The notes beneath the pieces are model-generated. The model was given only the letters and a program-made list of their open reading frames with translations. It made no database searches and was not told the DNA's origin. Below, one piece after another: positions 1 through 16,113 of a DNA stretch of 20,031 nt. Within the stretch, counting starts at the first letter, position 1. The number at the start of each line of letters is the position of its first letter. A program made the translations under genes and the position numbers. Source of the stretch: a bacterium (GTDB lineage Bacteria > JADJOY01); assembly GCA_046331705.1 (NCBI GenBank), contig JAXLQJ010000033.1:62001-82031 (forward strand), in the 5' to 3' direction.

Positions 1-3000
1 GATCCCAACCCCGCCGCAATCCTCGCCCTCAAAGGTCCTCGACCCCGCGATGGGGAGCGGTCACTTCCTCGTTGAAGCCTGCCGCTTCCTCGGAGAGAAG
101 CTCTACGAAGCCTGCCGCCTCTTGCGACGAGAGAGCTCGGGAAGCCGAAGCGCGAGCCGAGACGGCCATCGACCCGGACCGCGAAACCGCCCGAACCGGC
201 CGGCCCGCAATGGCGTGCCCGCCTCCTCGGCCCCTCCCGGACCCCAACGACGAGCTCGCCTATCCTCCCGACCCACGCAATCGAAGACACCGCGAGAGGC
301 ACTTCCGGAGCGGAAGGCTCCCCGCCTCGCCGCCGGCTCGTCGCTGTGCACTGCCTGTACGGCGTCGACAAGAACCCACTCGCTGTCGAACTGGGCGAAG
401 CTCTCGCCAGCCTCGAATCCCACGCCGAGGGTCTACCCTCACGTTTCTCGATCATCGACTGGTGCTCGGCGACGCGTTGACCGGCCCGTTCTTCGAGCAC
501 CTACTGACATTCCCGGGAACCCAACAGCCGCTCGACGACCTGTTCACCAAGGGCCTGCGAGAGCAGCTCACCAAAGTGCTCGCCGCCGCCCTCGTCCACG
601 TCCGTGAGCTGGAAGCCACCGTCGGCGTCACCCTCGCCGACCTCCTCGCAAAACAGGCGGCGATGGCGAAGCTGAACGCGGCGCTCGCGCCCTTCCACAC
701 TCTCGCCGCTGTCTGGGCCGGCGGCGTGATGCTCGGTGGCCGCGCCTGCGACGACGTCGGCTACGGGGACCTCACACGCTCCATCGCGGACCACGGCGTT
801 GCAGACCCGGCGGCCCTCTCGCACCCCACCATGGGCCGGATGCTCGCAACCGGCATTGGCGCAACTGGAGGCGCCCAGGCAGGCCCAGACGCGCCCCGCG
901 CTCTCCCCTACGACCTCACCTTTCCCGAAGTCTTCTTCCCCACCGGCTCAGCCGTCGCCAAACGTGGATTCGACGTCGTGCTGGGCAACCCACCGTGGGA
1001 CGCGATTCAGTTCAAGTCCAAGGAATTCTTCGCCGCGTTCGACTTCGAAATCTTGAGCGCACCCACGAAGCGTGAACGTGAGCGAATGGAGGTAGAAGCC
1101 CTCCAGGCCCCAGCAGTGCGAGCCCTGCTCGAGCACTACAAGGAGGACTTCGAGCAGCAGAAGCGGGCCAACGACGTCCTCTACCGCTACCAGAAGGTCC
1201 AGATCGAAGGCGACCTCGCTGGGCGGCAGCTTGATGCGTTCCGGGTGTTCATGGAACGGAATGCGCAGCTTCTCGCACCGACCGGGTGCTTGACCGGTGT
1301 CGTTGTCCTATCCGCCTTCCACGCCAACGAGGGTGCAACTGGCGTTCGGCGGCTGTATCTCGAAGAAATGGGCCTACGCTGCTGCTACTCGTTTGAGAAC
1401 CGGCGGAAACTCTTCGAGATCGACTCGCGGTTCAAGTTTGCGATCATCCTTGCATCGCGAACGGGACCGACCCTCGAGTTCCCATGCGCATTCTACCTTC
1501 ATGACGACGAGTGGCTCTTCCAACCGAGGGCAGCGATCCGATACAGCTTGGCGTTCGTACGTCGCACTGGCGGACCTCACTTGAGCATCATTGAACTTCG
1601 CTGCCGAATGGATCAGATGATTGCGAATCAAATGCATCAATGCGCACAATCGTTTGTCGGCGTTACGAGCCGGCTGGGTGTGCGGCTTCAAAAGAGTCCT
1701 GCCGCTCTGGACATATCCAAGTACAGCCGACGCTTTGAAGAGGCTCCACGGCATACTCATAAGCATGAGCATCCCGTCCGTGGATCTGCCCTCCTGGAAG
1801 ATTGGTGGTACACGAAGGCAAGACATTTCGCGATTTCGGACGACAGATGGGGATCACATCCTCGCTATTTGCTTCCATTAGCAAAGGCGAACGACTTGCC
1901 GCTTCACGTGGAGCGAGCATGTGACTATCAAATTGCAATTAAAGAAAAATTTCTGCTCAACAAATGAGCGCACAATCATCGCATCCCTTATGCCTCCTGG
2001 CGTCGTATTCGTAGATAGCTGCCTGGTGGATGCCAACGTAAGGGCGTCTACCCGCGCTTGTCGACTATTTCTTTTGTCAATCCTTAATACCTTTGCATTT
2101 GACTGGATTGCACGACAATACATCGCGTCAAACGTCAACCTCTTCATACTTGAATGCTTGCCGACCCCAGCGGTTGAGTCTCAAATCGCCTTCTTGTCTC
2201 GGGCAGCCCTACGACTGTCCTGCAACCACGCGAGCTATGCGCCGCTCTGGCACGAGCAGGTCGGTGACGCTTGGCATGAACCCACGCCGCCACTTTCGTG
2301 GCCGGTGCTCCCCAGCAACGACGACCGCTGTCACGTCCGTGCCGCCATCGACGCCGAGGTGGCGAACGCTTACGGCTCTCCCGCGAGCAGTACGCCCACG
2401 TGCTCTCGACGTTCACCCACAAGAGCTATCCGAAGGCGCCCGCCCTGTGCCTCGCCAAGTTCGACGAGTTGAAGTCGACCGGGTTGGAGGCCTTCACCCG
2501 TAAGTACGACCCCTACTGGGATATCCCCCTCAACGAGAACCTCCCCCAACCCGTCATCGATCTGCCGGTTCCCGCCGACGCCGACGCGTCATCGCCCGGC
2601 GCCACGCACCCCACCCTCGACCTCGTGGGTGGTTCTTCGTCGCCGCGACGCAAGCAGCGACGAGATGCTGCCGCCGGCGAAGGCGGGTCTGCCGCACCTC
2701 GCCAACCAGCCGGGCAAGACGCACACGGCGAGGTCAGTGGCTCGACGAATGGCGCGCTTCCGCTGGCAGCCGAAACCACACCGCATTCCGCTGAACGTCT
2801 ATCCACACCCGACCTGTGGAATTCGCCGAGTGCCGGTGACATTTCTCGTCACTCTTCCGCGGAAAACACCGGCGGGGGACGAGCCCCTGCCCTACGGCAA
2901 CGCACGCGCCGGATGAACGCCGCGAACGGTGTCGATCCAGAGGCCTTCGATCGGGTGAAGGCGCTCCTCGCCGAGCGCCAAGTCATTACCAGCGCCGACG

Positions 3001-3131
3001 TCCAGTACCTCCTCGCCACCAACGCCTCCGGCGCTCGCCCCTACCTCCACGCCCTCATAACCCAAGGCCTGGCCGTTACCGAAGGCCAACGCAGGGGATT
3101 GCGATATCGCGCTACTGGGGTAGCGTCGTGA
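1..3131 (+). CDS. Large N6-adenine DNA methyltransferase with target-recognition region (Type IIG/Eco57I/DrmMI-like); 5'-partial, interrupted by several apparent frameshifts
   Basis: Motif [13 protein letters not shown] at 35-70 (frame 2). [13 protein letters not shown] at ~355-393 (frame 1). Catalytic motif [13 protein letters not shown], with NPPW at 987-998 (frame 3), followed by [19 protein letters not shown]-flank motifs LVVHEGKTF (1802, frame 2) and [13 protein letters not shown]...[11 protein letters not shown] (frame 1). C-terminal [13 protein letters not shown]...[15 protein letters not shown] in frame 3, open to TGA 3131. Motifs are in the expected order but in shifting frames. Confidence 0.85.
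2913..3131 (+). CDS. Winged-helix (wHTH) domain: either the C-terminal tail of the methyltransferase or a separate 72-aa gene from ATG 2913
   Basis: [54 protein letters not shown] has a wHTH pattern ending in a G-x-x-R-G-x-x-Y wing. It is in frame with the MTase C-terminus after a low-complexity linker. Its stop overlaps the next GTG start (GTGA, 3128-3131). No clear RBS before 2913. Confidence 0.45.
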
Positions 3132-4171
3132 ACTCGACTGTTAGCGGGAGGGCGCGCGGACACGCGGGCTTGGGCGCAGACCTGGATGTCGATGTGTGCC
3201 CGACGCCACGTTACGTCTTGTTCGATACGAACATCTTCCTCGACGTTGCCAATGGAAGAATCGGCCCGAACGAGTGCCGTCAGGCAGAACAAGCCCTGCG
3301 TCCTGATGGCTTGGGACGGGTGAGCACGCTCTCCGTAATCGAACTAGGTTGCGGGCTCAACGATCAGCAGAAGTGGCATCGCTACGCGCTGGCCTTTCAA
3401 GCCGTTGTCGCACTGTGCTCTCGTGCGCTGCCCGATCCCAGCTTCTTCTTCCGCCGCGAGATCTTGAAACTCGAAACGTGCACTCCGGCTTTCGAGTCGG
3501 ACGGCGCTTGGCGTCTCTGTGAGCATGTGGCCGCGGTGGATTCGCACGCGTCACTATGCGAATGGGTTCGACGAAAGGATCAACAGGGTCGCGACCTCAT
3601 CGAGCGAGCCGCACTCGTGGCTCTGCCCGACGTCCGAGCGAGCTACGAGTCCAGCTACATCGCGCGAGTTGGCCGGCTGCGAGAGCTCTTGCTCAATCGA
3701 ACCGGAACTATCTCGGCGCCGTCCGGAAAGCCGGTAGCCCGACCCGGACCTACCAGAGAGCGCTGGCTTCAGGAACTGGATTCCAACGACTTCGGTTTCG
3801 TGTTTCTCGCGCTCGAGGCGCATGCGATCGGTGTACCACTCATCGGACAACGGGTTGACCGCGACGCTGATGCCGTCGCTCTAATCACGCCATTTCTCGA
3901 TGCGCTGCGAAGCCTGCTTCGTGCTGCCGTCGTATCTGACTACAACATCGAAAAGCATAAAAACGATTTTGTCGACATTCTGTTATTGCTCCACCTCGCG
4001 GACGAGCGCGTGCTGTTCGTCACCAACGATCGGCGATTGCGCGAGCGAATCCCGTCCGACGCCACGTACGGGCATCGAATCGTTGACTTCAAGGGATGGC
4101 TTGCGCAAACGAGCAGGCAGACCGACCAAACGCCTGGCAGCCGCCGAATCCGCAACAATGAACGTCACTGA
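3128..4171 (+). CDS. Large PIN-domain protein (putative RNase), 347 aa
   Basis: PIN catalytic pattern: N-terminal [10 protein letters not shown], then STLSVIEL, and C-terminal NDFVDILLL...[10 protein letters not shown]. The start overlaps the upstream stop (GTGA) and the stop overlaps the next gene's ATG at 4158. Confidence 0.75.
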
Positions 4172-5882
4172 AGCCGTCCTCCGCCGGTGGCTCACCGATC
4201 CCGAGGGGGAGCGGCTCGAGCTCAAGTCGACGCTGCTGTCGCGGAAGGAGATCGCCGAGTACGCGGTGGCGATCGGAAACGAGGGGGGCGGTTGGCTGGT
4301 GATGGGAGTCACCAACCGACCACCGCGCCGAGTGGTGGGCGTGGATCCACCGAGCGCCGCGCAGTCGCAGACCATCCAGAACAGCGTGCTCGACGCGACT
4401 GGCATCCGGGTCGAGATCGGGCAGATCGCGACTGAAGAAGGAACGGTGGTCGCCATCCGCATTCCCGGTCGACCGCGGGGCCAAGTCTTCTCGACCCGAT
4501 CCGGGAAGTACCTGATGCGGGCTGGTGAGACGCTTCGCGGAATGACGCTGGCCGAAATCGACCGGCTTCGTGCGGGCGAGCTGGCGCGCCCGGATTTCAC
4601 GGCTGAGTCGCTGGATCTCGACTGGCGCGAGGCGCTCGATCCGGTCGAGCTCAGCAGGCTGAGGCAGTTCCTGCGCGACCAGGCGGACCGCGGATCCGGT
4701 CGTCGCGAGCTTGCCGGGTTGAAAGACCCCGAGCTCCTCCGCGCGCTCGAGCTGGTGGTGACATCGGGCCGACGTACACGGCTGGTCCGCGCCGCAGTGC
4801 TGATCGTCGGCACGAGGGCGGCCATTCGGGAGGCGATACCGAACCACGAGGTCAAGATCCTCCGCTTCGGACGTGACGATCTCACTCCGGATCTCACCGA
4901 GGACACGCGCGCGCCTCTCCTTGCCGTGGCGCAGCGAGCCGAGGAGATCGTCGAAGCCGTGAACACCGTCGAGTCGTACCAGGCGGGACTCTTCCGCGTG
5001 GACATCCCCAAATTCCCGCCAGCCGCGTATCGCGAGGCCATCGCGAACGCGCTGATTCACCGCGACTACCAGCAGTCGGGGAACGTGGCGGTGCGGGTGT
5101 ATCGAGACCGTCTCGAGGTCGGTAGCCCCGGGGGATGGTTCGGCACCATCAACGAGAGCAACATCCTCGTCACCGAATCGCAGCGTCGCAACGAGCGCCT
5201 GGCCGAGGCACTGCAGAAGATCGGGCTCGCCGAGCGCGCCGCCCTGGGCGTGCGGCGCATGTTCACCGCGATGCTGCGCGCGGGGAAGCTGCCACCCAGC
5301 TACAGGTCCACTGCACGGACGGTGACGGTCACACTCGTAGATGGATCGTTCGATCGCGAGTTCGTCGCGCTCGCCCGGCGGCTAGGTGAACGGGGCGAGG
5401 ACTTGTCGGTCTTCGATCTCCTCCTTCTGTCACACGTGAGGCGACACCGCGAGATCACGGTGAAGGACGCGGCGGTGCTCTGCCAGCGATCGGATACCGA
5501 GGCGCGGCGCCTTCTCGACGACCTCCGAAACCAGGAGCTACTCGAACGGGTCGGCGAAGGGCGAGGCCGCAAGTACGTCCTTGGACCAGTGGCCTACGAG
5601 GACCTGGGGCTCACCGGTCAACGACCGCGCGACCTCGGTCTGTCTGAGAAGACCTTCGAGGGTCTGCTCATCGACGAGTTGGAACGTAAGGGCACGAAGG
5701 GCCTCACGGCCCGAGAGATCCGCGAGTGGTCGCGACACGGGAAGGCGCAGACCACTCGCTTGCTCCAGTCGCTCCAGCGCCGGGGCGTGATCGCCGCCTC
5801 CGGGAAACGAGGCCTGGGAAGCCGATATTGGCTCATCAAGCATGCACCGGCCGGCGTGCCGATTCGACAGAATCATGCGTGA
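4158..5882 (+). CDS. AlbA_2 (Schlafen-like) + HATPase_c_4 ('RecG C-terminal-like') + tandem wHTH protein, 574 aa
   Basis: N-terminal EGERLELKS...EYAVAIGNEGGGWLVMGV (AlbA_2). YREAIANALIHRDY...YRDRLEVGSPGG...RRNERLAEALQKIGLAERAALGV (HATPase_c_4). Two C-terminal wHTH repeats ending GEGRGRKY and GKRGLGSRY. ATG 4158 is preferred over the ORF-track start 3900, which lies inside the PIN gene. Confidence 0.9.
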   Translation: MNVTEAVLRRWLTDPEGERLELKSTLLSRKEIAEYAVAIGNEGGGWLVMGVTNRPPRRVVGVDPPSAAQSQTIQNSVLDATGIRVEIGQIATEEGTVVAIRIPGRPRGQVFSTRSGKYLMRAGETLRGMTLAEIDRLRAGELARPDFTAESLDLDWREALDPVELSRLRQFLRDQADRGSGRRELAGLKDPELLRALELVVTSGRRTRLVRAAVLIVGTRAAIREAIPNHEVKILRFGRDDLTPDLTEDTRAPLLAVAQRAEEIVEAVNTVESYQAGLFRVDIPKFPPAAYREAIANALIHRDYQQSGNVAVRVYRDRLEVGSPGGWFGTINESNILVTESQRRNERLAEALQKIGLAERAALGVRRMFTAMLRAGKLPPSYRSTARTVTVTLVDGSFDREFVALARRLGERGEDLSVFDLLLLSHVRRHREITVKDAAVLCQRSDTEARRLLDDLRNQELLERVGEGRGRKYVLGPVAYEDLGLTGQRPRDLGLSEKTFEGLLIDELERKGTKGLTAREIREWSRHGKAQTTRLLQSLQRRGVIAASGKRGLGSRYWLIKHAPAGVPIRQNHA

Positions 5883-6063
5883 GGTCGGTAACTTGGAAGA
5901 CTACGGGCAGGTCGCATTGGCTCATTCGTGGCGCTGCATTGGCTCATGATTGGCTCATTCCGGAACGGGCGTCCCGAGCAGCGCTACGGATCCAGCACAA
6001 TCGCAATCCGAAGAAGCCTCGTGATTCCAGGGCCTTCTCTCGCATTGCGCCACTCATTGCGCC
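5827..6063 (+). repeat. Direct-repeat cluster: ATTGGCTCAT x4 and CATTGCGCC x2
   Basis: ATTGGCTCAT at 5827-5836, 5916-5925, 5938-5947 and 5949-5958. CATTGCGCC at 6043-6051 and 6055-6063. Confidence 0.85.
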
Positions 6064-6090
6064 TCCTTTGACCGATAGCAGGTGCCGAGC

Positions 6091-9000
6091 GTGACGCTGA
6101 ATCCCATCCGCATCGTCGATCGGGTAATCGACGAGTACCGGGATTACGTCCGGACCGAGTTCCGAGCCAAGGATCCCGGGCTCCGAGAGGCACTCGAAAG
6201 AGAACTCGGTCGGCCGCTCTTCCTGGCGCAGGAGCCCTTCTATCAGGCCCATCGCCCGTTCAAGAGCGGGAAGCGCTGGAAGGACCTAGCACTGGATCCC
6301 AAGCTCGCGCGGGTGATGGAGCGGCGGTCGGGCTCGGAGTGCGCGTACATCCATCAGTCGGATGCGATCGACCGACTGCTCGGCTCAGGCGCGGGTCCAC
6401 TGGTCGTCACCACGGGCACCGGGAGCGGCAAGACAGAGTGTTTCTTGCTGCCGGTGATCCAGAACGCGCTGGAGGATGCGGCTCGGTTCAGGAAGGCGGG
6501 GCTCACGGCGATCCTCGTGTACCCGATGAACGCGCTCGCCAACGACCAGCAGGCGCGGATCGAGGAGTACCTGCGGGACGCTGGCATGAGCGGCGCCGTC
6601 GAGGTGGCGCGCTACGACCGCGGCACCACACAGGCCCAGCGTCAGGCGCTGAGACGCAACCCGCCCCACATCCTGCTCACCAACTACATGATGCTCGAGT
6701 ACCTGTTGGTGCGCCCCGCGGACCGCGACGACATATTCGCCAATCACCGGTGCCGCTTCCTGGTCCTCGATGAGGTTCACACCTATCGCGGGACGCTGGG
6801 CGCCAACATCGCCCTCCTGATCCGACGCCTGCGGGCGCACCTACGGCGGGCACGCCAGGACTGGGGCGCGGATGCCGCGGGTCCCGAGAAGGGTCGGCGG
6901 TTTCCCACGCTGCTCACGATAGGAACGTCGGCCACGATCAAGAGTGTCGCCGGTGACGAGGTTCCGCCCGAGGAGCGGACCCGACTGCGTGACGAGGCGG
7001 TACAGGGGTTCTTCGGCAAGATCGCCGGCGAGGATCCCGGCTCGATCCGTGTTCTCGGCGAGCAGATCGAGGAGATCCGGGAGCCGGCCGATGCCGCCAT
7101 GGCATCCGGCGTCAGCAACTTCCCGCAACTCAACATCGCGGACCTCGGATCACTTCAGTCGGGGCTCGCGGCGCTCGCGGGCGTTCCGACGAGCACGCCC
7201 CTGGCCGAGGCGGCGAGTCGGGCACGGATCCTTTGGCTGCTCAACCGCTGGCTGGTGCGAGCACCCATGTCGGTTTCGCAGATGGTCGACCGCCTTCGGA
7301 CCGAGGTGCCTGAGCGCCGCGAGACCGATACCGACGCGCTTCGCAGCGAGGTCGAGGCGGCGCTGTTGATCGGGTCGGCGTTACCCGAGGGGACCCCCGG
7401 TGCGCTTCGGCTCCGCGCCCATCGCCTTCTCCGCGGCGGGTGGGCCTTCCATCGGTGCGTGGATCCGGATTGTGGCCGCGTCTACCCGATGGGTGAAAGC
7501 AAGTGCGACTGCGGACGATCAACCGCTCCGCTCATGCTGTGCCGCAACTGCGGCGCGGACTACCTGCGTCTCGCTGGCGAGCCAGCCAGCGCTCCGCTCC
7601 GCCCCTGGGCGGCCGGCACCGAGGCGCAGGAGTGGCTTCTCTACGAGCCGACTCGGTTCACAACACCGATCATCGAGCCAGACGACGAGGAAACGGAAGA
7701 GGACGACGAGCCGCCCACGCGGCGAACCCGTGCCGCACCCACCGTGACGGTTCCTGCCGCGCTGGCCGGTTCATTCGACCCGTCATCGCTGGCGTTCAGC
7801 GTCGACCCAACCGATTACCGAACGCCGGTCACCCTTTCGCCGACTCGAACCAAGTGCCTCTGCTGCGGAGGCACCGCGGGCAACCGGCCAGTCATCACCC
7901 CGGTCTCGCTCGGAACCTCAGCTGCAGTGAAGGTGATCGGCGAAGGGCTCATCGAAGCTCTCGCGGACGCCAACCGCGACCGCCCCGGACATGACGGGAA
8001 GGAGCGATTGCTGGTCTTCGCCGACAGTCGGCAGGACGCCTCCCACCAAGCGCGGTTCATTCTGTCTGCCAGCCGGTATGACCGGATGCGCCGAAGGGTG
8101 GTCCAGATCCTCGGCGAGTCGGGCCCCATCGGAATTCAGCGGCTCGTCGAGCTCTTGGGCGATCGAGCCGTCGCGATGCACGACAACCCGCACGTACCGT
8201 CGGGCTCTCGCCGGCTCATGCCCGAGGAGACCGCTCGCATCCGCGCCTGGGAAGAAGCGCCTCTCCTCGACGATATCGCGGTCACATCGGGTTACCGCGG
8301 GACCTTGCTCAACCTCGGGCTCGTCGGCGTTCGCTATCAGGCGCTCGAAGCGGAGGTCGGTGTACGTGGGAAAGCGCTGGCGGGTGCCCTCGGGCTGAGC
8401 ACCACCGATCTCGCCTACGTTGCGCGATGCCTCCTCGACGAGATGCGACGGCGGATTGCGCTTGGCCGCGACATGCTTCGCTACAACCCGGCTCACGCCT
8501 CCTGCCCGTCCTACGTCGACAGCGCGCAGTGGGAGCGCAGAATCCGACGACCTGCCGGCTACGCCCTGTCGCGTGAAGGGACGATCGTGACGTGGCTCGA
8601 TCCAGCGCGCGTGCCGGACGGCATCAAGGCCGAGAACGCTTGGCGACGCGATGGGAAGGGCGGACGCGACCCGAGCCTGGCCCGCATCCTCAAGCATCTC
8701 GTGCGTGCTCTCGGCGGTGGGGATGTCGATGCCGACGACATGGTCGCGTTGCTCGAGCTCCTGGCCGACGCTGGTGCGGTGGTTCCGTTCGACCTCTTCG
8801 GCTTCCGCGAGCGCTACGCGCTTCTGCAGGTGAATCCTGCGGCGGTGGTCCTAGAGCTCACCGCCGAAGAGACTCGCCTTCGATGCGAGGTCTGCGGCGC
8901 CGCGAGCCCATTCGCGCCGCTTAACGCACCGTGTCCACGATGCCACGGCCGTCTCATCCGCTGGCCCGATGCCGCCCTCGCAACCAATCGATCCGTGCGC

Positions 9001-11400
9001 CGGATCCGGTCCGGAACGGCCGTGCCGCTGGTCGCGGGCGAACACACAGCCCAGGTTCCAAACGACCGGCGCCTCGAGCTCGAAGAGGCGTTCAAGGCTT
9101 CGCCGAAGATCTCCCCCGTGAACGTGCTCGCTTGCTCGCCAACACTCGAGATGGGTATCGACGTCGGCGGCCTCGACGCGATCTTGCTGCGGAACGTCCC
9201 GCCACGACCAGACAACTACGCGCAGCGCGGAGGCCGCGCCGGCCGCCGGACGCGGGTCGGCCTAGTGATCGGCTATGCACGGCGTCGTCCCCACGACCAG
9301 TACTTCTATGAACGCCCCGCGGAGATGATCTCTGGCGAAGTTCCCGCACCGGCATTGGCCCTCGGAAACCGAGACGTGATCCACCGGCACGTCAACGCGA
9401 TCGTTTTCGGCGCAGCCGAACCGGGGCTCTCAGGGCGAATGGTCGACTACGTCACCCCGACCGGCGGTGTGAACGAGGAAAAGCTGAAGGCGTTCATCGA
9501 CGCAGCACGAGCGAAGGTTGGCGAAGCGCTCGACCTAGCGGTCGACGCCTTCGGTCCCGACGTCATCCCCGCTGCCGGCCTCAGCCGAGACGATCTCGAG
9601 CGAAGCCTCACCGAGCTTCCCGACCGGATCCGAGACGTGGTCGAGCGCACGGCTCGCCAGGTCCACGACCTTCATCAGACGATCAGGGCCTGGGCAACCG
9701 ACCTGCTGGGCGCGCGAGCTAGTCAGCGAGCAGGTGAGCTGATCCGTCGCATCCTCGGCATGGCGTCCGAGCGCGGGGCGAACCAGCCGGAAGCCGACGA
9801 TCGGTCAGCCGGATATCCGATGCGCCGGTTCGCCGAGTTCGGAATCTTGCCCGGATACGAGTTCCCGAGTGAGCCCGCCGCACTCCGCCTGCTCGGCGAC
9901 GATCGCGAAGAGGAGCCGGTCACAGTTGCGCGTCGATTCGGGCTCTCGCAGTTTCAGCCAGAGGCTCTGGTCTACGCGCGGTCACGTCGGTGGAAGGTGA
10001 TCGGGCTCGACTCGTCCTCACCGTGGAATCCGCAGGCCGACGTAGCACCCGCGCACTACCGAATCTGTCGCGAATGTGATCTCCGGTACCGCTCGGATCT
10101 GCCACGGTGTGGAAGATGCGGGACCGAGGCGCTAGGGCTACCGATTCCAGCCGCCGAGTACGGCGGGTTCCTTGCGAAGCGCGACGAGCATTCGATCCTG
10201 GACGAAGAAGACCGCCTGGCCGCTGCGGACGCCGTGTCCACCGAGCCGCAGTGGGACGGAGACGTCGTTGGGCGCTGGCTCACCGCCGCCGGTTGGTCGC
10301 TCCGGCTCAGCCGAGGCGAGGAGATCCAGTGGATCAACGAGGGATTACCACCCAGCAAGCCTGACATCGAGGCAGGTCACTACCTCCATCCCGAGGCGAA
10401 GGGGTTCTCACTCTGCCCCGCGTGCGGGGCGATGCTCACGATCCCCCCCGATGAAAAGGCGACCAAGGGCAAGAGCAGGCGGGCGCCCCGAACCTCGGCC
10501 TACCGAGAGGATCGCTACGGCCACCGGAAGGAATGCAACCAGGCCGGGAGCCCCCCCAAGCCCGTTGCGATCTCGACGTCCAGCAAGGCCGAGGTGCTCA
10601 GGCTGCTCGTGCCGGTGCCGTCCGAGCTCCAGGGAACGGAGGCCCGGAGCTGGGGGCTGTCACTCGGCTACGCACTTCGGATCGGCATGCGTCACCTCTA
10701 CATGCTCGACGGACCCGAGATCGAGTTTGAACTAGAGGGGCCCTGGACCAAGAAAAGCGACGGGGGCGAGATCCAGCTCGCGTCGCTCTCGTTCATCGAC
10801 CCGAGCCTCGGCGGAACCGGCTACGCCTCGCGGATCGCGGCCGAGTTTCACCTGGTCGCGCGGCGCGCGATCGATCACCTGGAACACGCCGGCTGCGAGA
10901 CTGCCTGCTATCGATGCCTCAAGTCGTACGCGAACCAGCGGTTCCACGACCTCCTTCGCTGGCCGCTCGCCCTACCCTCGCTCGAGTCGCTTGCAGCCGA
11001 TAAGCCCGTTACACGGCCGCTCGAGACCGGCGATCTCGACGACCCGCGCCCCTGGCTCGAAGCCTTCGCCGCCGGCGTCGGCTCCCCTCTCGAGCTCAAG
11101 TTCCTTCGGCTCTTCGAGAAGCACGGCTTCCATCCGCAGAAGCAGGTTCCTGTGGCCGTTCGGGACGGAGACGCAGCGATCTCGATCGCCGACTTCGCCG
11201 TCCCCGAGAGACGACTCGCGATCTACATCGACGGGGCGTCGTTCCACGTCGGTGCGAATCTTCGGCGTGATCGCCAGATCCGTGAGCGGCTTCGGAATGG
11301 CGATCCGCCGTGGCGGATCGAGGAGCTCCGCGTGAGCGATCTCGCGCTCGGTGCGGAGCTGTTGAGGCGGCTCGGCGCCGAGCCTCACCCCACCCAGTAG
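6091..11400 (+). CDS. Large SF2 DEAD/DEAH-box helicase with Zn ribbons, DUF1998-type domain and C-terminal Vsr/DUF559-like endonuclease (DruE-like / fused DrmAB-like), ~1769 aa
   Basis: Q motif YIHQSDAI, Walker A TGTGSGKTE, YPMNALANDQ, LLTNYMMLEYLL, DEVH, SAT, LVFADSRQDA, EHTAQV, CSPTLEMGIDVG, NYAQRGGRAGR. Many CxxC pairs. DUF1998-like FIDPSLGGTGY...CETACYRCLKSYANQ. C-terminal SPLE...ADF...AIYIDGASFH...RDRQIRERL. GTG 6091 follows an AGGTG RBS-like sequence; GTG 6082 is an alternative start. Confidence 0.92.
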   Translation: MTLNPIRIVDRVIDEYRDYVRTEFRAKDPGLREALERELGRPLFLAQEPFYQAHRPFKSGKRWKDLALDPKLARVMERRSGSECAYIHQSDAIDRLLGSGAGPLVVTTGTGSGKTECFLLPVIQNALEDAARFRKAGLTAILVYPMNALANDQQARIEEYLRDAGMSGAVEVARYDRGTTQAQRQALRRNPPHILLTNYMMLEYLLVRPADRDDIFANHRCRFLVLDEVHTYRGTLGANIALLIRRLRAHLRRARQDWGADAAGPEKGRRFPTLLTIGTSATIKSVAGDEVPPEERTRLRDEAVQGFFGKIAGEDPGSIRVLGEQIEEIREPADAAMASGVSNFPQLNIADLGSLQSGLAALAGVPTSTPLAEAASRARILWLLNRWLVRAPMSVSQMVDRLRTEVPERRETDTDALRSEVEAALLIGSALPEGTPGALRLRAHRLLRGGWAFHRCVDPDCGRVYPMGESKCDCGRSTAPLMLCRNCGADYLRLAGEPASAPLRPWAAGTEAQEWLLYEPTRFTTPIIEPDDEETEEDDEPPTRRTRAAPTVTVPAALAGSFDPSSLAFSVDPTDYRTPVTLSPTRTKCLCCGGTAGNRPVITPVSLGTSAAVKVIGEGLIEALADANRDRPGHDGKERLLVFADSRQDASHQARFILSASRYDRMRRRVVQILGESGPIGIQRLVELLGDRAVAMHDNPHVPSGSRRLMPEETARIRAWEEAPLLDDIAVTSGYRGTLLNLGLVGVRYQALEAEVGVRGKALAGALGLSTTDLAYVARCLLDEMRRRIALGRDMLRYNPAHASCPSYVDSAQWERRIRRPAGYALSREGTIVTWLDPARVPDGIKAENAWRRDGKGGRDPSLARILKHLVRALGGGDVDADDMVALLELLADAGAVVPFDLFGFRERYALLQVNPAAVVLELTAEETRLRCEVCGAASPFAPLNAPCPRCHGRLIRWPDAALATNRSVRRIRSGTAVPLVAGEHTAQVPNDRRLELEEAFKASPKISPVNVLACSPTLEMGIDVGGLDAILLRNVPPRPDNYAQRGGRAGRRTRVGLVIGYARRRPHDQYFYERPAEMISGEVPAPALALGNRDVIHRHVNAIVFGAAEPGLSGRMVDYVTPTGGVNEEKLKAFIDAARAKVGEALDLAVDAFGPDVIPAAGLSRDDLERSLTELPDRIRDVVERTARQVHDLHQTIRAWATDLLGARASQRAGELIRRILGMASERGANQPEADDRSAGYPMRRFAEFGILPGYEFPSEPAALRLLGDDREEEPVTVARRFGLSQFQPEALVYARSRRWKVIGLDSSSPWNPQADVAPAHYRICRECDLRYRSDLPRCGRCGTEALGLPIPAAEYGGFLAKRDEHSILDEEDRLAAADAVSTEPQWDGDVVGRWLTAAGWSLRLSRGEEIQWINEGLPPSKPDIEAGHYLHPEAKGFSLCPACGAMLTIPPDEKATKGKSRRAPRTSAYREDRYGHRKECNQAGSPPKPVAISTSSKAEVLRLLVPVPSELQGTEARSWGLSLGYALRIGMRHLYMLDGPEIEFELEGPWTKKSDGGEIQLASLSFIDPSLGGTGYASRIAAEFHLVARRAIDHLEHAGCETACYRCLKSYANQRFHDLLRWPLALPSLESLAADKPVTRPLETGDLDDPRPWLEAFAAGVGSPLELKFLRLFEKHGFHPQKQVPVAVRDGDAAISIADFAVPERRLAIYIDGASFHVGANLRRDRQIRERLRNGDPPWRIEELRVSDLALGAELLRRLGAEPHPTQ

Positions 11401-11741
11401 AGGATTCGGCCGCAGTGGCCGCAGGTCTTGACCGAGAGGTTCTGGCGGATGTTCTGCACCCACGCCGTGGGGATCATCATGAAGCAGCCGAGGCAGATGC
11501 CGCCGTCGATGGGGACGATGGCCTCGCCGTAGCGGTCCTTGAGGCCCTGGTAGTGGGCGAGGACCTCGGGATCGAGCTGAGAAGCGCGCTTCGAGCGCAG
11601 CTCGATCAGCTGCTGACGGCGCTCGGGCTGCCACTGGAACCCCAGCTTCTCGAATTGCTGGACGTTGTCCGGAACGTCCAGCTCGGCGAGGCGCTGATCG
11701 ATGTGCTGGATCTCGAGCAAGATGTGAAGCGTTTCGTCCAA
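11385..11741 (-). CDS. Short C4-type zinc-ribbon protein (zf-RING_7/DUF164, CT398/HP0958-like), 118 aa
   Basis: N-terminal LLEIQHIDQRLAEL and C-terminal ICLGCFMMIP...TCGHCGRILY. TTG start preceded by a GGAGA RBS. The 3' end overlaps the convergent helicase gene by 16 bp. Confidence 0.85.
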   Translation of the reverse strand: MDETLHILLEIQHIDQRLAELDVPDNVQQFEKLGFQWQPERRQQLIELRSKRASQLDPEVLAHYQGLKDRYGEAIVPIDGGICLGCFMMIPTAWVQNIRQNLSVKTCGHCGRILYWVG

Positions 11742-13515: not shown

Positions 13516-16113
13516 GTGAGCCTGAGACGGATCCCGCCACGATCGCGCGGCGCTCCCAGCTCCGCGCCCGCCGAGAGCGCGGCGGCGCTCGTGCCGCCTG
13601 GCGATTGGCAGGTGATGACGCCCGGCGACGAGCGGCGCTTCCATCCGCTCTACGTCTCGCTCCACGAGGGAGCGCTGAAGCTCGCCTTCGGGCGCGCGTT
13701 CGACGAGCGCGCCTGGGTCCGCACCAAGGATGCGGTGAAAGCATCGGGGGCGCGTTTCGCGCGCGACGTCGAGGCCTGGCTGCTGCCGATCGGCGACTTC
13801 GCGCTCGATCGGATCGTGGGGCTCACGGTGTTGGCCGAGCCGGACGCGCGCGCAGCGATCGACGCGGCACGCCACGCGCTGCGCCACCGCTTCGATCACC
13901 TCCCGCCCGCCGCGCGTCAGTTCCGGCCCGGCATCCGCCAGCTCACGCCCGACGAGATCCGCGCCCATCCGTCGCTCAGCGAGTCCGAGAAGACCTTCGC
14001 GTGCGACGTGCGCAACACCCGCCCCGCGGATCTCTCGCCACGCCAGCGCGACTGGCTGAAGCGCATCGACGCACGGCACCGCGCGCGGCTCGACGAGGAT
14101 CCGGCGTTGGTCGAGGCGCTGTTCCGGGCGCGCGCCGAGCGGCTCATGAGCACGGCGGTCACGCGCGGCGGCGCCAGTGCGGCACGCCCCGAGCCCGAGC
14201 CCGCGGCGCCCCGCAGGCCGCGGCGCGAGGCGCCCGCGCTCTCGGCCCCCGAGGCCCGTCGCAAGCGAGCCGCCGCCAAGCCCGCCGTCGAGGCGGTTTC
14301 GCCGCCGGCCGCGCCCGCGCCGCCCGACGACGCCGAGCTGGTGCTCTTCCAGCCGCGCATCGAGGACCTGGCACGGGAGGACCTGCGCCGCCTGCCGATC
14401 TTCCAGCCCGACGATCGCATCGAGCTCAGGAAGATCCTCACCGGCGGGACGTCGATCTGGGCGAACGAGCTTCAGCTGCGCCTCGACTCGTATCTCGAGG
14501 CGCATCCCGAGGCGCGCATGGCGCTCTTCCAGGCACACGCGGCGCGGCGCCTCGCGGCGGAGGCCGACCAACGGGCGCGGGAGCGGATCGAGCGAGCGAA
14601 GGACGACGATCGCTTCGCGCTGCCGCGCGGCTTCCGCCGCGAGAACCTCGCCGCCGGTGACCTTCACGGCTATCAGCGCAAGGGAGTCCAGTGGTTGCTG
14701 ACCGTGCGCCGCGGCATCCTCGCCCACGACGTCGGCCTGGGTAAGACGGTGCAGGCGATCGCCGCGGCGGCGGCGCTCATGGATCGCGGCGAGGCGAAGC
14801 GCGCGCTGATCGTGGTGCCGAAGCCGCGCCTGGTCGGCTGGGAGCGCGAGATCCGCCGCTTCACCGATCGGGGCGTGATCGCCGTCTTCGGAGATCGCGA
14901 CGCCCGTCTGGCGGCGTATCGCCGCGCGGCCCGGGTGCCGTTCGTGATCGTCGGCTATCACGCGCTCCAGCGCGAGGTTCCCGAGCTCGTCGGTCTGGAC
15001 GCGGACGTGCTGATCGTCGACGAGGCGCACCGACTGAAGGGCTCGAAGACGCTCGCGTCCGTGGGGTTTCGGCAGCTCGCCAGCGCGCCCTACGCGTTCT
15101 TCCTCACGGCGACGCCCATGCCCAACCGCCCCGAAGAGCTACACGCGCTCCTCGGCCATCTCCATCCCAAGCTGCTGGGGTCGCTGTGGGGCGACTTCGC
15201 GCCGCGCTACGCGATCGTCGAGCGGCTCAAGCTGCGCGGGCGGCGCCGCCCCGTCTTCCACATCAAGGGCTATCGCAACCTCGACGAGCTCCGGCGACGG
15301 ATCTCGCCCTACGTCTTCCTGAAGAGCGCCACCGATGCCGATGTGTCGCTCGACCTGCCGCCGCTGCGCGAGCTGGTGATCGAGCTGGGGCTCGCCGCCG
15401 AGCAAGAGGAGCTCTACCGCAATCTGCGCCAGGACGCGGCCAAGACGCTCGCCGCCATCGATCCACGGCGCTTCGGCCCGCGCGAGCGCGCCAGCTTGCT
15501 CACCCACATCCTCAGGCTCGAGCAGGTCGCGATCTCGCCGCTGCTCGTCGATCACGGCTACCGCGGCGCCAGCCCGAAGATCGACGAGACGGTGGAGCTG
15601 GTCATGGAGCGGCTGGAGCGCGAAGCGGCCGGAACGATCGTGTTCTGCCGATTCCTCGACGTGCTGGCGGCCCTGCGCCGGGCGCTGGAACACCGCGGCG
15701 TGAGCCCGGCGAGCATCGCGTCCATCGAGGGCAACGTGCCGGCCACCGAGATCGACGCCATCGAGCAGGGCTTTCGCGCGGGGCGCTTCCGGGTGCTGCT
15801 GGCGAGCGACGCCGCCAAGGAAGGGCTCAACCTGCAGGGCTGCGCCGACCTGCTGATCCACCTCGACGTCCCGTGGGTTCCGAACGTGGTGCACCAGCGG
15901 AACGGTCGGATCTACCGCCAGGGTCAGCACCGACCCGTGACGATCATGCACTTTCGCGTCCCGAGGACGATCGAGGAACGCAAGGCGGCGACGCTCGAGC
16001 GCAAGAGCGGCTGGATCGCCGAGGTGCTGGGCACGGGCGTCGCCAGCGTGGAGACCGCGCTCAACCTCGAGGATCTGCGGGCGCTGCTCGCCGACGACGC
16101 CGCCGCCGAGTGA
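13516..16113 (+). CDS. SNF2-family helicase/ATPase with an N-terminal extension, ~865 aa
   Basis: LHGYQRKGVQWL, GILAHDVGLGKT, IVDEAH, LTATPMPNRPEEL, SPKID, IVFCRF, DAAKEGLNLQ, DVPWVP, QRNGRIYRQGQ. The start is uncertain: GTG 13516 preferred, ATG 13615 possible. The ORF-track start 13336 overlaps the divergent hydrolase gene. Confidence 0.9.
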   Translation: MSLRRIPPRSRGAPSSAPAESAAALVPPGDWQVMTPGDERRFHPLYVSLHEGALKLAFGRAFDERAWVRTKDAVKASGARFARDVEAWLLPIGDFALDRIVGLTVLAEPDARAAIDAARHALRHRFDHLPPAARQFRPGIRQLTPDEIRAHPSLSESEKTFACDVRNTRPADLSPRQRDWLKRIDARHRARLDEDPALVEALFRARAERLMSTAVTRGGASAARPEPEPAAPRRPRREAPALSAPEARRKRAAAKPAVEAVSPPAAPAPPDDAELVLFQPRIEDLAREDLRRLPIFQPDDRIELRKILTGGTSIWANELQLRLDSYLEAHPEARMALFQAHAARRLAAEADQRARERIERAKDDDRFALPRGFRRENLAAGDLHGYQRKGVQWLLTVRRGILAHDVGLGKTVQAIAAAAALMDRGEAKRALIVVPKPRLVGWEREIRRFTDRGVIAVFGDRDARLAAYRRAARVPFVIVGYHALQREVPELVGLDADVLIVDEAHRLKGSKTLASVGFRQLASAPYAFFLTATPMPNRPEELHALLGHLHPKLLGSLWGDFAPRYAIVERLKLRGRRRPVFHIKGYRNLDELRRRISPYVFLKSATDADVSLDLPPLRELVIELGLAAEQEELYRNLRQDAAKTLAAIDPRRFGPRERASLLTHILRLEQVAISPLLVDHGYRGASPKIDETVELVMERLEREAAGTIVFCRFLDVLAALRRALEHRGVSPASIASIEGNVPATEIDAIEQGFRAGRFRVLLASDAAKEGLNLQGCADLLIHLDVPWVPNVVHQRNGRIYRQGQHRPVTIMHFRVPRTIEERKAATLERKSGWIAEVLGTGVASVETALNLEDLRALLADDAAAE

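Follow-up and report, generated by a model that had tools for sequence, protein, structure and literature searches.

The anti-phage system ARMADA combines a YprA-like helicase, a BrxHII/RapA-like helicase and a PglX-like methyltransferase; its helicases are reported to be closest to those of Druantia, and a Vsr-type nuclease is described at the C terminus of ArmC in both Type I and Type II (Bell et al. 2025, PMC12458937). According to the same study, the reversed order BrxHII-like, PglX-like, YprA-like is found in the Type I systems of many archaea and cyanobacteria, and its Supplementary Table S1 lists the Gloeobacter violaceus protein WP_011142730.1 as an "ARMADA Type I helicase." For the Type II system of Escherichia coli (NCTC 12900 / ATCC 8739), protection against 13 of 80 phages has been reported; the system acts directly, with no growth arrest and in a non-abortive manner, and each of its genes is required for protection, as are the Walker motifs in ArmA and ArmC and NPPW in ArmB (PMC12458937). 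Here, we examine a bacterial DNA stretch of 20,031 nucleotides (G000:C33:62001-82031, hereafter called the window, the end of which is also the end of its contig), which carries four co-oriented coding regions on the + strand. This region is very probably an ARMADA Type I anti-phage locus with the reversed gene order and two extra genes, which encode a PIN-like and a Schlafen protein. As such, it is a further example of an already named system and not a new system.

Core genes and comparison with the named systems

The core genes were recognized by profile and sequence comparison (Table 1, where, as throughout the text, negative positions lie upstream of the first nucleotide of the window). 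In ArmC, the DEAD, Helicase_C and MZB/DUF1998 domains of Pfam are joined in one open reading frame (ORF) of 1772 amino acids, with the Walker A motif GSGKT at 114 and the DEVH motif at 230, both in invariant columns of the alignment. Its strongest PADLOC matches are DruE1 (4.2e-117) and DruE3 (1.2e-113), while DrmA reaches only 4e-14. Among the matches listed, the 119 best database proteins (about 1720 to 1930 amino acids) are 56 to 63% identical to ArmC over the full length, and the relatives listed come from Gloeobacter and other cyanobacteria, Thermoguttaceae, Binatia, Thermodesulfobacteriota and Verrucomicrobiota. In particular, ArmC is 61% identical over 99% of the query to the aforementioned WP_011142730.1 (P0006) of G. 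violaceus, and it is this identity, not a tree, that assigns it to the Type I helicases.

An initial annotation, made from the sequence of the window alone, had expected a DrmD-like SNF2 gene upstream of the methylase. Such a gene, armA, was found as an intact ORF in the 18 kilobases (kb) of upstream DNA examined (L001), and the locus thus starts 4.9 kb outside the window. ArmA keeps the GLGKT and DEAH motifs and matches the DrmD (7.6e-109) and BrxHII (2.6e-72) profiles of PADLOC, the SNF2-rel_dom, ResIII and Helicase_C domains of Pfam and, in NCBIfam, both RapA (3.8e-50) and DISARM_DrmD, the latter with 390.7 bits against a curated cut-off of 610. The operon contains, then, the BrxHII/RapA-like SNF2 helicase that characterizes ARMADA Type I. 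It also contains the PglX-like N6-adenine methyltransferase, ArmB, which is recognized by the PADLOC profiles REase_MTase_IIG (1.8e-22) and DrmMI (6.7e-13) and by Eco57I of Pfam (1e-7), with motif I (DPAMGSG) at window position 41 and motif IV (NPPW) at 987. From the content of this trio and the 61% identity to a listed Type I helicase, it follows that the core is ARMADA Type I.

The locus shares with ARMADA Type I the same three proteins and the order ArmA-ArmB-ArmC. Different from the described loci, it has the PIN-like and Schlafen genes between armB and armC, and its armB is frame broken in this assembly; furthermore, related loci with this order, judged by record titles, come from Planctomycetota, Myxococcota, Verrucomicrobiota, Chloroflexota, Acidobacteriota and Thermodesulfobacteriota too. 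Two results make the assignment of the C-terminal nuclease a tentative one. The domain is weak by sequence, since the last 100 residues or so of ArmC resemble REase_MTES_1575/Vsr with an E value of 7e-4, below the Pfam cut-off, and a profile search of the PDB gave it no match at an E value of up to 1. Across the C-terminal 135 residues of 13 homologues, MTES_1575 was matched in 10 and Vsr in 2, the best with 2.2e-4 and all of them below threshold; in the alignment of this domain, D67, D80 and H85 are invariant (alignment A4 numbering).

ARMADA Type II has ArmA, ArmB and ArmC in the same order, but its ArmC is followed by ArmD, a RelE-like protein with a UvrD/GajB-like helicase, and often carries extra inactive EEP/Vsr domains (PMC12458937), whereas the ArmC of the window ends directly after the Vsr-like domain. 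An ArmD-like query gave no match in the window or its contig, and the sole match in the genome was a weak one of 95 amino acids on contig C10. Since no ArmD-like gene occurs at the locus, it is not ARMADA Type II.

The initial annotation had stated that the visible genes fit neither the DISARM nor the Druantia layout, and this was borne out by the tests for the features of both systems. Class 1 DISARM resembles the locus in having an SNF2 helicase and a large adenine methyltransferase of the same families, and a YprA-family helicase with DUF1998. However, helicase and DUF1998 form one polypeptide in the window and are separate (DrmA and DrmB) in DISARM, a putative fused Vsr-like nuclease takes the place of the separate PLD protein DrmC, and the helicase scores far better on the DruE than on the DrmA profiles. 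Neither Pfam nor PADLOC detected a PLD domain among the ORFs of the island. DrmC is optional in some DISARM loci. Class 1 DISARM was rejected on the unsplit DrmA/DrmB, the missing PLD nuclease and the DrmD score of 390.7 against 610 bits. Druantia, in turn, shares the giant DruE-like helicase recognized by PADLOC, but the partners of the helicase in the window are an SNF2 helicase and an adenine methylase, and none of the Druantia partners (DruA-D, DruM/F/G, DruH) was matched by PADLOC among the 8 window and 8 upstream ORFs; Druantia types I to III were rejected, the DruE-like helicase being without any of these partners. As for the nuclease, Druantia III is reported to have a PLD and Druantia I/II an inactive Vsr, while the C-terminal nuclease of ARMADA is of the active Vsr type (PMC12458937). 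What did not hold was the implication that the layout is unnamed: a match to an already named system had been set down as grounds for refutation and, for the core, ARMADA Type I is such a match.

Table 1. Features of the locus, in window numbering, with the evidence or identity on which each rests
Feature	Position	Strand	Evidence or identity
armA, SNF2 helicase, 1079 amino acids, intact	-4907..-1668 (L001:13093-16332)	+	PADLOC, Pfam, NCBIfam
armB, PglX/DrmMI-like N6-adenine DNA methyltransferase	about -1655..3131 (start L001:16345 = G000:C33:60345)	+	PADLOC, Pfam, homologue frame map
armB segment 1	-1664..-1020	+	62% identity to L039
armB segment 2	-1000..-356	+	58% identity to L039
armB segment 3	-359..447	+	33% identity to L039
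armB segment 4	429..1946	+	45% identity to L039
armB segment 5	1963..2376	+	41% identity to L039
armB segment 6	2379..2567 (frame open to stop at 3131)	+	83% identity to L039
Cargo gene 1, predicted PIN-like nuclease, 347 (GTG 3128) or 333 (TTG 3170) amino acids	3128..4171	+	Conserved acidic residues, fold search
Cargo gene 2, prokaryotic Schlafen (pSlfn): SLFN_AlbA_2, HATPase_c_4 (GHKL-like) and MarR-type winged helix-turn-helix, 574 amino acids	4158..5882	+	Pfam
armC, YprA/DruE-like superfamily 2 helicase, OB-CON-DUF1998 (MZB), putative C-terminal Vsr-like PD-(D/E)xK nuclease, 1772 amino acids, intact	6082..11400	+	Pfam, PADLOC

The broken reading frame of armB

The initial annotation had listed the methylase as one of four co-oriented genes. 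In fact, the window holds the 3' three quarters of armB, which starts 12 nucleotides after armA, is divided into six frame segments and, from position 1 to about 430, runs in a frame other than the one assumed. The DrmMI and type IIG profiles match several ORFs in different frames, and motifs I and IV also lie in different frames. The frames were mapped by aligning three intact homologous ArmB proteins back to the contig by tblastn, and the homologues align in six consecutive segments of alternating frame with five junctions. When the armB gene was taken from 13 related loci, it was a single ORF of 1425 to 1544 amino acids in 12 of them, that of L057 having 902 amino acids.

Beyond the last segment, the C terminus of ArmB (window 2574-3131) consists of a linker of low complexity and a winged helix-turn-helix (wHTH)-like tail of about 60 amino acids. 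It belongs to no Pfam or NCBIfam family, and it aligns with the C terminus of ArmB in L053 (43% over 246 amino acids). Sequence resembling this tail occurs as a small separate ORF in L043 and L050, with further matches in L059 and L073.

Such a gene could be a true pseudogene, in which case ARMADA would be decaying and inactive here and the cargo genes alone might still act. The frame of armB changes at least five times while armA, armC, rpoB and dnaE are intact, the genome has no second copy of armB or armC elsewhere, and, in the E. coli Type II system, deletion of any gene or mutation of NPPW is reported to abolish protection (PMC12458937). Public sequencing data, however, argue against decay. 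Part of the DNA of the locus is contained in 20 runs from 13 studies, mostly sludge and wastewater metagenomes, and the contigs of four runs from four independent studies were compared with the assembly over L076:3800-8700. Over these 4.9 kb, 44 places with insertions or deletions (indels) separate the assembly from the four-run contigs; 12 of the 44 are listed, all of them of single-base scale and in window -34..393 (L076:5467-5894), and three of the 12 are common to all four runs. At the listed indels, the four independent metagenome assemblies agree with one another and against the window. Between the contig pieces and the assembly, gaps are about as many as substitutions (17 and 12, respectively, in one piece of 1243 nucleotides), which, between near-identical sequences, seems to us unlike natural decay, and most deletions fall in short homopolymers.

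Furthermore, when the 12 listed indels were applied by a script, the stretch of 33% identity turned into one in-frame block of 162 amino acids, 69 to 71% identical to the ArmB of L039, L047 and L034, with no separate block for L069. The read-supported indels, once applied, give back the conserved frame. Since the contigs of four studies carry indels that restore this frame where it can be tested, the frame breaks of armB are probably local indel errors of the assembly and not gene decay, which we regard as unlikely; in the population, the gene is probably whole. Three observations weigh against assembly errors as the explanation. A frame change persists after the edit between L076 5904 and 5927; 12 of the 44 indel places are visible, and none of the five mapped junctions is directly resolved by them; and the errors are oddly local, with armA (1079 amino acids), armC (1772), rpoB (open frame of 1410) and dnaE (open frame of 1192) unbroken, from which it follows that the assembly is not frameshift prone in general. 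A local mixture of strains at a variable locus is one possible cause of the bad stretch at window -34..393. A near-identical intact ArmB was also sought with window 1963-2376 as the query, the best match being 62% identical.

Broken frames were observed in related loci as well. In 7 of 21 (L027, L032, L034, L035, L039, L052 and L058), the frame of ArmC stops early, after 313 to 1653 codons in comparison with about 1760, with tblastn matches continuing beyond the stop; frameshift errors or decay in the respective assemblies are the likely cause, and the loci labelled "MFD" among the seven are presumably long-read assemblies. The ArmC of L073 is longer, with 1887 codons.

For genome scans, the case of armB calls for caution: what looks like a pseudogene in a metagenome-assembled genome can be the product of indel artefacts confined to one stretch, a question that public reads are able to decide.

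Linkage of the trio and the variable armB-armC slot

Around the relatives of the helicase, 57 related loci were collected, one genome per species, and searched by tblastn with the window proteins. Of these loci, 33 include 10 kb of DNA upstream of the helicase, and in 30 of the 33 (our tally) ArmC is preceded by pieces of ArmB on its own strand, the exceptions being L059, L070 and L072. ArmA comes directly before ArmB wherever the related locus extends far enough. This gene arrangement is far beyond chance, and the linkage of methylase and helicase, whose absence among homologues would have spoken against the initial annotation, is conserved.

The initial annotation had also raised the question of whether the region between methylase and helicase is a site of variable cargo, and the comparison gives a positive answer. 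In 35 loci, the distance between the last conserved block of ArmB and the start of ArmC ranges from 90 to 8873 base pairs; 7 of these slots are shorter than 0.8 kb, and hence empty, and 28 are longer than 1.2 kb. According to Pfam, run on the 94 slot ORFs, GmrSD_N occurs in the slots of 7 loci, and UvrD-like helicases in those of 4, two of them with a ParE/RelE-like N terminus. SLFN_AlbA_2-HATPase_c_4 proteins are found in the slots of 2 of the 35 loci (L043 and L073). Further slot domains are TIR, NACHT/STAND-type ATPases, protein kinase, AbiEi/AbiEii, HipA, MqsA with ImmA, HEPN-RES, canonical PIN, DUF3644, ParB-methylase-YhcG, an AAA protein with an S8 peptidase (subtilase), an SbcCD-like pair and DUF559. 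The armB-armC slot is, thus, a hotspot of recombination, occupied by stand-alone defence modules that differ from genome to genome. A term search of the main text of PMC12458937 found no mention of such a variable slot.

As to the UvrD-like helicases, they lie between ArmB and ArmC at L023:5666-7759, L024:7518-9650, L053:7152-9416, L059:5251-7398 and L069:7461-9578, with partial ones in L063 and L067. The five loci, mostly of cyanobacteria and Chloroflexota, have a Type-I-like ArmC, and the proteins of L023 and L069, with their ParE/RelE-like N terminus, resemble the ArmD of Type II. In ARMADA Type II, ArmD comes after ArmC and is treated as a hallmark of that type (PMC12458937), whereas an ArmD-like gene stands before ArmC in these five related loci.

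The island to which the locus belongs spans about -4900 to 11400, as seen in the codon-position G+C (guanine plus cytosine) plot and the G+C profile. Its third-position G+C is about 0.8, compared to more than 0.9 in the flanks, and its G+C content is 0.65 to 0.68, compared to 0.69 to 0.745 in the flanks, except for window 1001-4000 (the 3' half of armB and the PIN-like gene), where it falls to 0.556 to 0.631. This low G+C fits a swapped segment. The third-position signal nearly vanishes at window 1500-2200. Each of the public runs X1 and X6 has one contig that departs from the window at 2587 (L076:8088), right after the last conserved block of ArmB, and another that continues as the window does. 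This agrees, though as a weaker hint, with a swapped segment, and it may point, weakly, to the coexistence of strains that differ in ArmB tail or cargo.

The island lies between host genes: upstream, it borders on a gene of the PEBP family and, downstream, on a convergent Zn-ribbon gene followed by a gene for phosphotransferase system EIIA. The Zn-ribbon gene (window 11385-11741, - strand) encodes 118 amino acids of the C4 type and overlaps the 3' end of armC by 16 nucleotides; its product matches Zn_ribbon_9 of Pfam (7.2e-8) and, weakly, a CdsZ-like family of NCBIfam (44 bits, cut-off 275). At the island borders, no tRNA was found in the 18 kb upstream of the window and no integrase domain among the ORFs scanned, so these borders do not mark the island as a mobile element. 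ARAGORN called a doubtful tRNA-Ala(TGC) at window 14215-14295 (- strand), 2.8 kb downstream of the island, which is possibly a false positive because the surrounding codon-position G+C resembles coding sequence. The locus was not found in the five genomes of the same genus and family that were searched, where the ArmC query was matched only at 30 to 35% identity, in two of the five (G002 and G005).

The cargo genes and their possible relation to the core

The initial annotation had called the first cargo product a PIN protein. Its Pfam PIN match remains below threshold (E value 0.0014; 19.7 bits, cut-off 23.6), and it belongs to no NCBIfam family, but its acidic residues and the fold search sustain the assignment. 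An exhaustive HMMER search of 1.84 billion proteins gave 51 representatives at an E value of up to 1e-3, most of about 300 amino acids and aligned over residues 30 to 326; as the homologues align across most of the ORF, it is a real and intact member of a rare family. In a 22-member alignment, D33, N35, E72, D280 and D283 (ORF numbering) are invariant and a VT.D/E motif follows, the acidic PIN signature being split by a helical insertion of about 170 to 180 amino acids. The AlphaFold2 model is confident, with a predicted local distance difference test score of 87.3 and a predicted template modelling score of 0.85. Foldseek of this model against the PDB returned nothing at an E value of up to 1e-3, with weak rows for VapC and SMG6 only, and a wider VIA-align fold search was run after it. 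Both the fold and the conserved acidic active-site residues of PIN nucleases were found, and the protein, keeping these residues, is a predicted nuclease.

The Schlafen gene was confirmed as the AlbA_2/Schlafen-HATPase-wHTH fusion described earlier. Scored on the ORF read from window 3900 (the ATG is at 4158), its product matches SLFN_AlbA_2 (2.7e-12; 47.7 bits, cut-off 25.3), HATPase_c_4 (1.9e-18) and a MarR-type wHTH (2e-7) of Pfam, with no NCBIfam family, and its PDB relative is the uncharacterised protein 3LMM (2.3e-17). The motif expected of pSlfn proteins, Ex4ExK, is intact (E16-x4-E21-x-K23), Ex4(E/D)xK being the catalytic motif of Schlafen RNases (PMC13056530). A Schlafen protein 62% identical to this one lies upstream of ArmC in L060, where it adjoins a TIR fragment. 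Fusions of pSlfn, HisKinase and HTH make up 19.2% of 5,930 prokaryotic Schlafens in PMC13056530, and we equate HATPase_c_4 with its HisKinase class. The protein of the window shares with them the Schlafen/AlbA_2 domain with Ex4(E/D)xK, the GHKL-type ATPase, the HTH and the setting in a defence island; different from them, it is placed inside an ARMADA operon, which is not described in the passages of PMC13056530 that we consulted.

With its C-terminal MarR-type wHTH, the Schlafen protein might instead be a transcriptional regulator of the defence operon, like the HTH regulators of BREX and other islands, and the gap of about 200 nucleotides before armC could hold a promoter or operator. HisKinase-type Schlafen fusions tested in E. 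coli are reported to give no protection against the phage panel, a result that would suit a regulator and counts against an effector, while DUF262-Slfn and Ig-like-Slfn did give defence (PMC13056530). Nevertheless, the catalytic Ex4ExK motif is intact, the same architecture is counted among the predicted effector Schlafens, with 69.6% of pSlfn genes lying within 10 kb of a known defence gene (PMC13056530), and the protein is absent from most ARMADA loci, so that regulation of the core does not need it. A purely regulatory role is, therefore, very improbable, and we continue with the Schlafen protein as a predicted effector.

Beyond the gene content, the motifs, the linkage of the trio and the variability of the slot, all of them direct observations, a working scheme for the core may be drawn from its domains and from the Type II experiments. 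ArmB would place a mark on a sequence motif of the host DNA; ArmA and ArmC, by ATP-driven translocation and unwinding, would engage unmarked incoming DNA; and the Vsr-like domain of ArmC would cut this DNA, which would give a direct, non-abortive defence. The PIN-like and Schlafen proteins would be independent RNA-targeting effectors, acquired as passengers by recombination at the slot, the Schlafen protein being a predicted tRNA/RNA nuclease restrained by its ATPase-HTH sensor part. Both cargo proteins are probably autonomous effectors. Two considerations temper this scheme: the mechanism of Type I is carried over, by analogy, from domain content and from Type II, to which the experiments in the ARMADA literature that we found are confined in their choice of type, and the two cargo genes overlap by 14 nucleotides (stop 4169-4171, Schlafen ATG 4158), which suggests co-translation and is easier to reconcile with a functional pair than with two passengers independent of each other.

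This overlap is what stands of the statement that the first three genes overlap end to start. The PIN-like gene overlaps armB, by 4 nucleotides, only if it starts with the GTG at 3128; with the TTG at 3170, a gap of 38 nucleotides results, and the homologous protein P0176 starts at residue 15 of the PIN-like ORF, which corresponds to the TTG.

The initial annotation had seen in the two proteins integrated back-up effectors that, like PrrC, would fire when a phage disables the core. Both genes do lie inside the operon in the same orientation, with the 14-nucleotide mutual overlap and the possible overlap with armB; both products keep nuclease active-site residues; and Schlafen-type proteins recur in the slots of L043 and L073 and upstream of ArmC in L060. 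A nested second layer of defence has precedents in restriction-modification-type loci, namely PrrC in EcoprrI and BrxU in BREX. Yet tblastn (E value of up to 1e-5) matched the PIN-like gene in none of the 57 related loci, and Schlafen proteins occupy the slot of 2 of 35, the other slots holding unrelated defence modules or, in 7 cases, nothing; from such diverse or empty slots it follows that the core works without any particular cargo. Metagenome contigs were scanned for relatives of the PIN-like protein with alignment A2, which was not conserved enough, and with the smaller A3, which found 7 loci, 3 or 4 of them with usable context. In these 3 or 4 contexts, no Schlafen or ARMADA neighbour was present, and the homologues stand alone: that of L077 is by OmpA and methyltransferase genes, and that of L083 is near a DUF5677 gene. 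At L081:1052-1990, a homologue lies between two permease genes of a branched-chain amino-acid (liv) ABC transporter operon and looks like a solitary insertion. The two cargo genes do not form a conserved pair, and the PrrC-like coupling to the core is thus unsupported; ARMADA Type II is, moreover, reported as non-abortive (PMC12458937). We consider integrated back-up effectors improbable here, and favour autonomous ones.

It is possible to hypothesize, though this too is improbable, that the slot is a built-in "expansion port," and that the PIN-like and Schlafen proteins are guards that would cleave RNA on sensing either that ArmB/ArmC is lost or inhibited or that ArmC has produced DNA intermediates. 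If this were true, the locus would be a two-layer system of direct restriction and abortive back-up, and the rare PIN family would be a new effector class.

An apparent DISARM/Druantia hybrid is placed, with this analysis, in ARMADA Type I, a widespread branch. Two modest points are new, namely that ARMADA Type I contains a hotspot for the exchange of defence genes, as seen in 35 loci across many phyla, and that there is a rare PIN family with a large insertion. In practice, further defence genes may be sought in the slot.

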